A stretch of 64,000 nt of DNA. It comes from Escherichia coli. Its GTDB lineage: Bacteria > Pseudomonadota > Gammaproteobacteria > Enterobacterales > Enterobacteriaceae. Every line of letters starts with the position of its first letter. Position 1 is the stretch's first letter. Shown one piece after another: positions 1-3,000 of the stretch. The position numbers were made by a program. Location: assembly GCF_030384885.1 (NCBI RefSeq), contig NZ_CP128613.1. One strand, given 5' to 3'.

Positions 1-3000
1 CGATATCTTCCAGCTCCGCCAGTGTGGAGAGTGCTTCGTCGTACTCATCGCCCTGATGCCCTTCCATAATTACCCGGCTCAACTGCTCCAGGTCGCTGTA
101 GATATTTTCAATTTCATCTGCCAACTGTTCGATTTTGGTTTCGAACAGATCCAGCAGCAGCTCGTAGGCGTTACCGTCCACCATTGACTGGCTACGGGCG
201 CGCATACGATACAGACGAAAAGCGGGCAGTTCACGCTCACGCAGAGTAAACAGACGACCATCACGGATGGTAAATGCCACAGTGGAGTTACCGGCGTGAT
301 CTTCCGCATCTTCAAAGAAGAAGAAGGAGTGAATATGCAGGCCGTCATCGTCTTCAAAGAAACGTGCAGATGCTTCGATGTCTTCCAGTTCCGGGCGGGT
401 TGCCAGGCTCTGGCCAAGTTCAGATTGTACGCGCAGTCGCTCGTCGTCATCCGGTTCGACAAGATCAATCCATACTGCATTTACAAGGGGTTGTGACTCT
501 TCGACTTCCAGCCGGGTCAGTCGGTTATTTTCCAGTTGAAATGCGCTCAGCATGACCGGGACTCCCAATGCTTAAAATATCGGACAGTTCGGTGGGCACA
601 CAGAAACAAATTGGGTTTCAGACCATTAAACAGCCTGACTCAGCGCGACGGGAAAAATTGAGGTCGCTGACAACCGCTAAGGCTATCAGCAAAAAGGGAT
701 AGCCTTAGGAGTTGATCCTGAATGACAGGATAGTGAGCCAGTATCTACTGGGTGTGTCCAAGGCGAATGTCCTCTTAGAGTGATCGTGCGCGCATGTTAC
801 GCCAGCAAAATTTTGCCGTCAACACGCAACAGAACACCACAGAACAATAGTTGAACTTCGCGCTTTTTGGTACTCGTCAAGGTCGCTAACAGGATAAAAA
901 AATCCCACATCCAGGACCTATAATGGCGCATCGGCTACTCATTGGTAAAGGAATGATCACCTTGAATCTCAAACGGATTTTTCTCGCCCTCACCTTACTT
1001 CCCTTGTTTGCTGTTGCCGCTGATGATTGCGCATTATCAGATCCGACACTGACCGTACAGGCGTATACCGTTAATCCTCAAACAGAGCGGGTGAAAATGT
1101 ACTGGCAAAAAGCCAATGGCGAAGCGTGGGAAACGTTACATGCGCTGCTGACGGATATTAATAGTCAGGGTCAGGTGCAAATGGCGATGAACGGCAGCAT
1201 CTATGATGAAAGCTATGCGCCGCTCGGTTTGTACATCGAAAACGGTCAGCAGAAGGTGGCGTTAAATCTCGCTTCAGGTGAAGGGAATTTCTTTATCCGT
1301 CCTGGCGGTGTGTTTTATGTCGCGGGAGATAAAGTCGGTATCGTTCGTCTGGATGCCTTTAAAACCAGTAAAGAGATTCAGTTCGCGGTGCAGTCAGGGC
1401 CAATGTTGATGGAAAACGGCGTAATTAATCCGCGTATTCATCCCAACGTCGCCTCACGCAAAATTCGTAACGGTGTTGGGATTAATAAACAAGGGAACGC
1501 CGTGTTTTTGTTGAGCCAGCAGGTGACAAATTTTTATGATTTTGCCTGTTATGCCAAAGCGAAACTGAACGTTGAGCAACTGCTTTATCTTGATGGCACG
1601 ATTTCACATATGTATGTGAAAGGCGGGGCAATCCCGTGGCAACGCTATCCTTTTGTTACCATGATTTCCGTCGAGCGGAAAGGTTAAGCATTGTACACTC
1701 GAGGAGGCCAGACAAACTGGGACTGGCTACACAGCTGGAAAATCATCAGATAAATGAAGGGAAACAAAAATGAAAAAAACGCTCGCAACGTTATTTTTAT
1801 TAACGTGTCTGGGATCATCATCCGCCTATGCGGATAACGCTTTGATTTTACAAACTGATTTTAGCCTGAAAGATGGTGCCGTCTCGGCGATGAAAGGGGT
1901 CGCATTCGGCGTTGACCATAATCTTAAAATCTTTGATTTAACACACGAAATTCCACCGTATAACATCTGGGAAGGCGCTTATCGCCTGTATCAGACTGCC
2001 AGTTACTGGCCGCAAGGTTCGGTGTTTGTTAGCGTGGTCGATCCGGGCGTAGGCACTGACCGTAAATCGGTAGTGCTGAAAACCAAAAACGGTCAGTACT
2101 TCGTTTCACCAGATAACGGTACGCTCACTTTGGTGGCACAAACTCTGGGTATTGATAGCGTCCGGGAAATCGATGAAAAAGCTAACCGCCTGAAAGGTTC
2201 TGAAAAGTCATATACCTTCCACGGTCGTGACGTGTATGCCTACACCGGTGCACGCCTGGCTTCCGGGGCGATCACGTTCGAACAGGTGGGGCCAGAGCTT
2301 CCTGCAAAAGTTGTCGAACTTTCTTATCAGAAAGCAAAAGCAACAAAAGGTGAAGTGAAGGGAAATATCCCGATTCTCGATATTCAGTATGGCAACGTCT
2401 GGAGCAATATCAGCGACGAGTTGCTGAATCAGGCAGGAATCAAACTCAACGACACGTTGTGTGTGACCATTTCCGAAGGTTCCCAGAAAAAATACGAAGG
2501 GAAAATGCCGTATGTCGCAAGCTTCGGCGATGTGCCGGAAGGCCAGCCGATGGTGTATCTGAACAGCTTGTTGAATGTTTCCGTGGCGCTGAATATGGAT
2601 AATTTCGCGCAGAAACATCAGGTTGCGTCTGGTGCTGACTGGAATATTGATGTGAAGAAGTGCGCTAAGTAAGGTGCTGATGCGGGATGCGGTGTGGCGC
2701 ACCGCATCCCGCAACGGAATCGTAAATTATACCGTCTCCAGCCGGGCGTAAGCCGCCACCAGCCATTTAATACCCTGGCCCTGAAATGCCACCTGCAAAC
2801 GACTATGTTCGCCGCTGCCTTCCATATTGACGATAGTCCCTTCACCAAACTTGGCGTGTCGTACGCGCTGGCCGAGTTTGTAACCGCTGTCGTTCTCAAC
2901 CATCGGCGTACCCATACGCTGATGGCTGACCGGGCGGCTTACCGTAGCGCGTAAACGCACCTCTTCCACACACTCTTCCGGCAACTCGCCAATAAAACGC

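Follow-up and report, generated by a model that had tools for sequence, protein, structure and literature searches.

What does an enzyme of a family that cleaves S-adenosylmethionine (SAM) do when it carries the marks of an exported protein? This question is raised by a gene at positions 1770-2672 (+ strand) of a 64,000-nucleotide stretch of Escherichia coli DNA (contig NZ_CP128613.1, assembly GCF_030384885.1; the whole stretch is referred to here as the window). The gene lies between yigE and uvrD and encodes a DUF62 protein of 300 residues, the superfamily that also includes the chlorinase SalL and the fluorinase FlA. On roughly even confidence, we propose that its product is a Sec-exported, periplasmic DUF62 enzyme of the 'SAM hydroxide adenosyltransferase' type that would release importable adenosine and methionine. 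We give the evidence for the family, the active site and the export signal, describe a near-identical gene in Helicobacter pylori, and then weigh this function against the alternatives.

Family membership and active site

The open reading frame (ORF) is intact from its ATG to its TAA. An in-frame TGA at 1755-1757, 15 nt 5' of the ATG, leaves Met1 as the only available upstream start, and a ribosome-binding site, AAGGGA (1757-1762), lies 7 nt 5' of the ATG. Of the upstream DNA, conservation in H. pylori extends only to the 5' leader that contains this site (1744-1769, +); the local alignment with the H. pylori locus begins at window position 1744.

Membership of the product in the DUF62 superfamily is confirmed, far beyond chance. 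Pfam profile hidden Markov models match SAM_HAT_N (PF01887) at residues 26-174 (E 4.9e-53) and SAM_HAT_C (PF20257) at residues 198-291 (E 2.4e-18). The first match is the N-terminal domain (1845-2291, +), which carries D30 and PDNG (114-117), and the second is the C-terminal beta domain (2361-2642, +), with the LDIQYGNVWSNI motif; both lie in the predicted mature protein (D22-K300 and the stop codon; 1833-2672, +), which has the two-domain DUF62 fold. In a sequence search of the PDB, matches below E 1e-19 were to DUF62, chlorinase and fluorinase chains only, ranging from 4.7e-44 to 3e-20 (2zbu, 4.7e-44; SalL, 1.6e-35; PH0463, 6e-34; MJ1651, 1.5e-33; FlA, 2.8e-22). An AlphaFold model of the 300-residue protein, built as a monomer only from a 53-sequence alignment, has a mean predicted local distance difference test score (pLDDT) of 94.6 and a predicted TM score (pTM) of 0.88, and its 40 best Foldseek matches in the PDB are all DUF62, SalL, ClA or FlA structures (E 7.5e-32 to 1.2e-17; target-normalised TM scores 0.78-0.92). 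The profile, sequence and structure matches agree with the SalL/FlA-type fold that had been proposed in an earlier sequence-only reading of this locus. The motifs named there, DNG and GNVW(S/T)NI, are present at 114-117 (PDNG, within PDNGT at 114-118) and 207-214 (YGNVWSNI), with LDIQYGN at 203-209, and D30, N116, G117 and G208 are invariant in the 53-sequence alignment. The motifs described for DUF62 proteins are PxNGL and IDxxFGN, and ribose is bound by an Asp (FlA D16) and an Asn (FlA N215) (PMC4859513); both ribose-binding positions are kept here, as D30 and N209.

Hydrolase members of the superfamily are defined by a water-activating Asp-Arg-His triad (D68-R75-H127 in PH0463), whereas halogenases lack the triad and have a halide pocket instead (Y70/G131 in SalL, T80/S158 in FlA) (PMC4859513, PMC10491745). 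In a residue-by-residue alignment with PH0463 (1wu8, 2wr8), D91, R98 and H151 of the E. coli protein fall on D68, R75 and H127; the corresponding codons are GAT at 2040-2042, CGT at 2061-2063 and CAC at 2220-2222 (all +). The sequence-only reading had named these catalytic residues as a point to check, and no loss was seen. The triad is also kept in the exported homologues described below (Asp in 35/35, Arg in 35/35, His in 33/35). SalL has Tyr, Thr and Tyr at the triad positions, its Tyr70 corresponds to Val89, and the halide-pocket equivalents in the E. coli protein are V89 and G152. The fluorinase model TIGR04507 scores 83.6 bits, below its cut-off of 400. Because the triad is present, the SalL residues differ and the fluorinase score falls below its cut-off, the protein is by sequence of the hydrolase rather than the halogenase type, that is, it belongs with the enzymes that use water to split SAM into adenosine and L-methionine.

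A signal-like N-terminus shared by a multi-phylum clade

Residues 1-21, MKKTLATLFLLTCLGSSSAYA (1770-1832, +), look like a Sec signal peptide, with predicted cleavage by signal peptidase I after A21 and before D22-N23. K2 and K3 form the n-region, residues 5-14 an uncharged hydrophobic core (mean Kyte-Doolittle value of 2.4 over the best 8 residues), and A19-Y-A21 occupies positions -3 to -1; a twin-arginine motif is not present in the N-terminus. Signal peptides were called with a simple self-written heuristic detector, not SignalP, which flags this ORF and three others among the 53 window ORFs of at least 150 residues. In the AlphaFold model, residues 1-20 have no secondary structure (pLDDT about 61), and pLDDT is at least 94 from residue 21. 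The fold starts at residue 25 with beta-strand 1 (residues 25-29), so Asp22 lies only a few residues ahead of it, and alignment and model agree with the earlier proposal that the signal peptide ends where cytoplasmic family members begin. Between the E. coli gene and its H. pylori counterpart, the ratio of nonsynonymous to synonymous divergence (dN/dS) amounts to 0.37 for the signal region and to 0.04 for the mature part; the relaxed ratio is as expected of a translated signal peptide under loose constraint. From these features we infer export and cleavage.

We searched one genome each from about 100,000 species for homologues and examined the best 80 of 124 matches. All 80 have an N-terminal extension of 22-50 residues, with basic, hydrophobic and small-residue portions, that ends 2-8 residues before strand 1; 75 were recognised as signal-like by the heuristic and the other 5 by eye. 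They come from phyla that include Proteobacteria, Bacteroidota, Verrucomicrobiota, Synergistota, Firmicutes, Fusobacteriota, Thermotogota and Planctomycetota. The signal sequences themselves are unrelated, for example MDIRTAPRAIALALMLASGIAAA followed by NE in Aeromonas and MKKVFRSTVMVLLLWLFFASTASA followed by KT in a Synergistaceae genome. Neighbour-joining on the mature regions places all signal-bearing homologues in one clade, apart from relatives with a short N-terminus. Among the 75 full-length 50%-identity cluster representatives nearest the query, an extension of at least 16 residues is found in 49 and not in 26. D35, N209, W211, N265 and L267 are invariant in the exported clade and variable in cytoplasmic relatives, and the family-invariant ligand and catalytic positions are all kept in the protein. 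As judged from these sequences, the export signal is a stable hallmark of a large branch with an intact active site. The sequence-only reading was right about the signal-like N-terminus, which the heuristic, the model confidence and the homologues all indicate, but treated as an oddity of one protein what a whole multi-phylum clade carries. Our literature searches for exported DUF62/PF01887 proteins found no description (PMC7736106 and PMC2692205 may mention signal peptides), and the branch is seemingly undescribed.

Two cysteines set part of this clade apart. Cys231 (codon 2460-2462, +) and Cys298 (codon 2661-2663, +), a co-occurring pair that could form a periplasmic disulfide, are found together in 33/157 aligned family members; 123 have neither, and the only lone cysteine of the pair is in a single shorter (268-residue) cluster representative. 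The carriers are all in the exported proteobacterial subclade, apart from one Desulfobacterales genome, and neither cysteine occurs in any of the 15 cytoplasmic relatives. The mature parts of other exported members have 0-2 cysteines, mostly none, and cytoplasmic members have 0-7. This pattern fits a periplasmic disulfide, yet it represents essentially one evolutionary gain.

Comparison with characterised SAM hydrolases places the E. coli protein close in structure and further off in sequence. PH0463 (1wu8, 2wr8), MJ1651 (2f4n, 22uy), a Thermotoga protein (2zbu) and Salinispora StDUF62 have the same two-domain fold, Pfam domains and triad, and SAM hydrolases also share the PxNG and FGN-type motifs. 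Target-normalised TM scores from Foldseek are 0.91-0.92 to 2zbu/2zbv and 0.84-0.88 to PH0463 and MJ1651, whereas identity to the characterised hydrolases is only 30-35%. The signal-like N-terminus and the clade-specific cysteine pair set the E. coli protein apart from the characterised enzymes, which align from about their residue 3-15. Characterised SAM hydrolases are known as cytoplasmic enzymes. Their supposed task is to clear the inactive (R,S)-SAM epimer inside the cell (bioRxiv 10.1101/2025.08.29.672840, PMC10491745). SalL and FlA share with the E. coli protein the fold, the trimer-type family, GNVW(T/S)NI and the ribose-binding Asp (D30). Phage T3-type SAMase also destroys SAM but has an unrelated fold; it is a cytoplasmic lyase that yields methylthioadenosine (MTA) and homoserine lactone and counters restriction (PMC7877911).

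Some exported DUF62 proteins are fused to other domains, which is suggestive only as a clue to function: one to a D-Ala-D-Ala dipeptidase (P0206; NF007557, E 3.8e-46), one to an alpha/beta-hydrolase (P0161), and those of Fervidobacterium (L073, L081) to a second DUF62 C-domain and a region with an HCVEGKDR (CX5R, phosphatase-like) motif.

A near-identical gene in Helicobacter pylori

The closest relatives outside Escherichia and Shigella, at 89-91% protein identity, are in H. pylori and H. acinonychis, a match that the sequence-only reading did not mention. The Helicobacter homologues form clusters of thousands of sequences and lie on complete 1.6-1.7 Mb chromosomes; the gene is in every H. 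pylori strain sampled and is fixed in H. pylori and H. acinonychis. It is HP0709/jhp0648 (UniProt O25413), in the order uvrA-hopE-rsmH-HP0708-[gene]-homA/B-HP0711-rpoN. HP0709 shares the signal-like N-terminus, the triad and the cysteine pair with the E. coli protein, and its genomic setting is unrelated. Public records give it conflicting names ('acetolactate synthase', 'adenosyl-chloride synthase/salL', 'SAM hydroxide adenosyltransferase'), of which the first two look wrong and find no support in its sequence. The confusion hampered the reading of a genome-wide association study (GWAS) of gastric cancer (PMC6090961). The papers that we found to name HP0709 do not address its function, export or origin, and our search for a report of transfer of this gene between E. 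coli and H. pylori found none.

The E. coli gene and HP0709 are 91% identical in protein and 85% in DNA over all 300 codons without gaps. Their third codon positions are 67% identical, dS is about 0.9, dN is 0.048 and dN/dS is 0.055. The E. coli alleles are all equally distant from the H. pylori gene (83.2-85.3%), which, with the high dS, indicates that the transfer was not recent; on these rates the gene is under strong purifying selection in both hosts and has been since the transfer. The next best matches are much more distant: Aeromonas (72-76%), Neisseriales genomes (72-75%), Edwardsiella (73%) and Pasteurellaceae (65-73%).

Several pieces of evidence suggest that H. pylori was the recipient: (i) In the neighbour-joining tree, the E. 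coli and H. pylori pair nests with Edwardsiella inside a gamma- and betaproteobacterial subclade. (ii) The Edwardsiella gene is nearly syntenic with that of E. coli and has diverged from it to the degree of an ortholog, as described below. (iii) No other Campylobacterota species is among the best 80 of 124 matches in the one-genome-per-species scan; other Helicobacter species, such as H. cetorum, were judged only by their absence from these 80. (iv) The guanine-plus-cytosine (GC) content of the H. pylori gene is 0.43 in a locus of 0.38. (v) The junctions are sharp, with similarity between the two species limited to the gene, the 26-nt leader and 6 nt after the stop codon. (vi) HP0709 (L002:6001-6903, CP079344.1) is flanked by direct copies of the homA/B upstream region (L002:5708-5975 and L002:6909-7175), which have diverged to about 75-80% identity and lie about 1.2 kb apart. 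The upstream copy runs into the decayed first ~15 codons of hom, in which ATG has become ATA, and a -10-like GTATAAT is kept in both copies. This arrangement suggests that the incoming gene integrated into a duplicated hom 5' region, whose promoter it captured. We therefore hold, with good confidence, that an Escherichia-like bacterium was the probable donor and H. pylori the recipient; this direction is weakened by the tree being neighbour-joining only and by the E. coli gene being itself patchy in distribution, with a GC content (0.475) slightly below that of the window (0.518).

Proposed function and alternatives

In the proposed mechanism, the 21-residue signal peptide would be cleaved after Ala21, and the mature protein (D22-K300) would fold in the periplasm, where a Cys231-Cys298 disulfide probably stabilises it, and presumably assemble into the family-typical homotrimer, in which the active sites lie at the interfaces between subunits. 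Asp91, Arg98 and His151 would activate a water molecule for attack on C5' of the S-adenosyl sulfonium, displacing the amino-acid moiety, and with SAM as the substrate the products would be adenosine and L-methionine. SAM is small enough to pass through porins, and adenosine and methionine are both readily imported; we know of no SAM importer in E. coli. SAM from host tissue, food or lysed cells that reaches the periplasm could in this way be scavenged as two importable compounds. Established periplasmic scavenging hydrolases include UshA and CpdB of E. coli and gamma-glutamyl transpeptidase and asparaginase of H. pylori. They would follow the same logic, in which a non-importable compound is turned into importable ones, but their folds and substrates are unrelated and the likeness is a functional analogy only.

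Every characterised family member uses SAM (PMC10491745, PMC4859513). The enzyme would also suit the physiology of H. pylori, a purine auxotroph that relies on salvage and has no de novo purine synthesis (PMC13328217, PMC13280913). A 2.9-fold increase in biofilm was found for an H. pylori gene annotated salL, and metI, the gene of a methionine permease, was also up (PMC6212823); we assume that this salL is HP0709, as each H. pylori locus that we fetched has a single DUF62 gene. HP0709 has been found in a vesicle proteome, in a list that also contains ribosomal proteins (PMC8756444), and is a target of human antibodies (PMC11394471), which gives weak support to its export. H. pylori needs methionine. 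With purine synthesis absent and methionine required, a periplasmic SAM hydrolase would yield two needed nutrients in this organism.

Other points weigh against this function. To our knowledge, SAM is not known as an abundant extracellular metabolite. No recurring transporter or salvage gene was found next to DUF62 in the 11 loci inspected; the neighbours differ in all of them, so function could not be read from gene neighbourhood and genomic context gives the scavenging idea no support. The NCBIfam (R)-SAM hydrolase equivalogs NF058624 and NF053629 score 131.3 and 117.3 bits, far below their cut-offs of 350 and 470, and the protein is for this reason not filed as an (R)-SAM hydrolase equivalog. 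Specificity for the (R)-epimer, established for Salinispora, Sulfolobus and Haloferax enzymes (bioRxiv 10.1101/2025.08.29.672840; PMC12120602), is not claimed for the E. coli protein. An in-frame TTG at Leu25 could in principle yield a cytoplasmic form.

The alternative that survives best, although we consider it unlikely, is that the exported enzyme performs the same chemistry on another 5'-substituted adenosine or sulfonium, such as decarboxylated SAM, environmentally epimerised (R,S)-SAM or a SAM-like natural product or toxin, in detoxification or signal removal. The residues invariant only in the exported clade (D35, N209, W211, N265 and L267) and the scores under the curated (R)-SAM hydrolase cut-offs would be consistent with a changed substrate, and (R)-SAM repair has been doubted as the sole DUF62 role (PMC12120602). 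In Haemophilus paracuniculus, a signal-bearing AidB-like N-acyl-homoserine-lactone lactonase (L028:3742-4749; profile match E 5e-47, below cut-off) is encoded directly upstream of the homologue on the same strand, which is intriguing in that SAM decays spontaneously to MTA and homoserine lactone. A substrate other than SAM was also suggested in the sequence-only reading. However, the ligand and catalytic positions invariant in the family are unchanged, SAM is the substrate of all characterised members, and no conserved gene context points to an alternative.

A role as a host-interaction factor, in which the exported or vesicle-borne enzyme would make immunosuppressive adenosine or deplete mucosal SAM and thereby aid colonisation, appears improbable. 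Fixation in H. pylori and H. acinonychis, and the frequency of the gene in pathogenic E. coli and Shigella, would suit such a role, as would the antibodies to HP0709, its presence in vesicles and the association of its D49N variant with gastric cancer by GWAS (PMC6090961). Yet GWAS and serology show no mechanism, and the ribosomal proteins on the same vesicle list detract from that result. Moreover, most members of the exported clade come from host-free soil, water and sludge bacteria, which argues that the ancestral role was not host-specific.

Somewhat less probable again is that the N-terminus is no working export signal, and that the protein is an ordinary (R)-SAM repair hydrolase of the cytoplasm, perhaps started at the TTG. 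Such a start would give M-I-L-Q-T-D-F, which resembles the cytoplasmic members, and cytoplasmic relatives reach 51% identity. Against this, a good AAGGGA precedes the first ATG and only a weak GGA precedes the TTG, and the paired cysteines are confined to the exported clade. Signal-like features are kept in 80/80 homologues while the sequence drifts, the pattern expected of a translated region selected for export; this clade-wide conservation argues that the full N-terminus is used despite the TTG.

It is very unlikely that the protein is a membrane-anchored lipoprotein, cleaved between T12 and Cys13, rather than a soluble periplasmic enzyme. Cys13 is preceded by L-L-T, and some Bacteroidota homologues have clear lipoboxes (LLTAC in L048, IGTAC in L058). 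But Thr at -1 is outside the usual G/A/S, the lipobox pattern [LVI][ASTVI][GAS]C is not matched, only 12 residues precede the cysteine, Gln replaces it in one H. pylori lineage (SA213A, L008), and a canonical A-x-A site follows at 19-21. A SAM-dependent halogenase (chlorinase or fluorinase), as implied by the automatic labels 'adenosyl-chloride synthase' and salL, of the Prokka type in H. pylori papers (PMC6090961, PMC6212823), can be dismissed, since its shared fold and GNVW(S/T)NI motif, identical to that of SalL, are outweighed by the triad, which halogenases lack (PMC10491745), by Val89 in place of SalL Tyr70 and by the low TIGR04507 score.

Returning to the periplasmic SAM hydrolase, a broader picture can be drawn, tentatively and at less than even confidence: an unremarked SAM-hydrolase branch may work outside the cytoplasm in many phyla, and one member may have passed from an Escherichia-like bacterium to the ancestor of H. 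pylori and become fixed there behind a duplicated outer-membrane-protein promoter. If this is true, gut, stomach, soil and water offer extracellular SAM, or a related adenosyl-sulfonium, as a genuine nutrient or signal, and the gene was plausibly fixed in H. pylori because it supplies purine and methionine. The role currently assigned to the family is intracellular (R,S)-SAM repair (bioRxiv 10.1101/2025.08.29.672840), an account whose completeness has been questioned (PMC12120602). A large exported clade cannot serve intracellular repair and would point to a second family role, with SAM or a look-alike as an extracellular metabolite. HP0709 itself is present in all H. pylori sampled, uncharacterised, linked by GWAS to gastric cancer risk and seen by patient antibodies, and its 91% identity to the E. 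coli protein marks a clean gene transfer between phyla with visible junctions. The surprise is capped, as the gene is already annotated and common; what sets its product apart from every characterised member is that it appears, by sequence, to be built for export.

The locus and its distribution in E. coli

At this locus the window is identical to E. coli 2013C-4282 (human stool, USA), in which the gene order is corA-ysgD-yigE-[DUF62 gene]-uvrD-yigB-xerC. Among 5426 complete E. coli genomes, 2413 carry the gene and 3007 have the empty junction of K-12, together accounting for 5420. Each of the 2413 chromosomal copies spans at least 80% of the gene length, and all but that of HS-02 are at least 90% identical. 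The HS-02 copy (NZ_CP172818.1, L087:4915-5772) is at the same junction with ~79% DNA identity, and is frameshifted with an internal stop; it is either a decaying allele or the product of a sequencing error. In one genome, a plasmid bears an additional copy (2414 places in all, 1 on a plasmid). The gene is routinely annotated, as a 'SAM hydrolase/SAM-dependent halogenase family protein' by PGAP, but it is not a core gene, both of which the sequence-only reading had left to be checked; with 2413 of 5426 genomes it is a common accessory gene.

In K-12, as stated in the sequence-only reading, there is no gene here: in place of the 1039-bp segment 1688-2726 stands a 146-bp spacer (NC_000913.3 4000146-4000291). 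By eye, the spacer contains repetitive extragenic palindromic (REP)-type repeats (REP/BIME-like), and no remnant of the DUF62 gene was seen in it. The word 'inserted', used for the gene in the sequence-only reading, does not describe this two-state polymorphism well. The yigE-uvrD junction also holds the gene in the divergent Escherichia lineage MOD1-EC7003. The homologue of Edwardsiella piscicida is flanked by rhtC on one side and recQ-pldA-rarD on the other, in the same neighbourhood and a few kb from the E. coli position, and its protein identity to E. coli (72.9%) is like that of the flanking RarD (73.6%) and PldA (64.9%). Because of the shared junction in MOD1-EC7003 and the shared neighbourhood with ortholog-level identity in Edwardsiella, loss in K-12-like strains is likelier than gain. 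The representatives of Salmonella, Klebsiella, Citrobacter, E. albertii and E. fergusonii are not among the matches of the one-genome-per-species scan. The simplest reading of these sequences is that of an old Enterobacterales gene lost repeatedly, including in K-12-like E. coli, where a REP-associated deletion may have removed it; a recent insertion into E. coli was rejected in favour of an old presence/absence polymorphism.

The allele of the window appeared at first to be unusually deeply diverged (dS 0.25-0.37 within E. coli), but this dissolved on comparison with the surroundings, as the whole window is diverged alike. At a control locus, rffA-wzxE (30000-31200), 2013C-4282 alone is at 99% identity or more, and all of the other 5424 genomes fall at 95-99%; for uvrD, most E. 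coli genomes match at 93-95%. The lineage of the whole window thus differs from mainstream E. coli by about 3-5%, which explains why the allele of the gene is found at 99% identity or more in only two genomes; the source may be a cryptic-clade or deep-branching strain.

Neighbouring features

The upstream neighbour, yigE (923-1687, +), encodes a phosphodiester glycosidase (DUF2233), ends 82 bp before the DUF62 gene and is kept in K-12 without it. An operon with yigE was considered and rejected: K-12 has yigE alone, and H. pylori has the DUF62 gene without yigE. A scan of the 82-bp spacer found no promoter-like site, a result that proves nothing. The yigE product also seems to carry a signal peptide if started at an internal Met (MITLNLKRIFLALTLLPLFAVAADD), and the GC content of yigE is 0.47, like that of the DUF62 gene, against 0.54-0.57 for uvrD, yigB and xerC; the two genes would form a small low-GC islet of exported proteins.

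The convergent downstream neighbour, uvrD (2727-4889, -), marks the other edge of the variable segment 1688-2726. Between it and the DUF62 gene lies a perfect GC-rich hairpin (2673-2721; strand not assigned) with a 15-bp core stem at 2681-2713 and a fold energy of -35.5 kcal/mol (z -5.5; 0/200 shuffles as stable). A consensus terminator scan does not call it, as it has no T-run. The hairpin resembles a REP element in sequence and is a possible bidirectional terminator.

Elsewhere in the window, two adjacent ORFs of 492 and 442 residues (8539-10017 and 10014-11342, +) have signal-peptide- or lipobox-like N-termini. The first is labelled 'DKNYY family protein' in 2013C-4282, where it lies beside lptM. 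In K-12, yzcX/cyaY is directly beside lptM, and the pair at 8539-11342 looks like another strain-variable insert.

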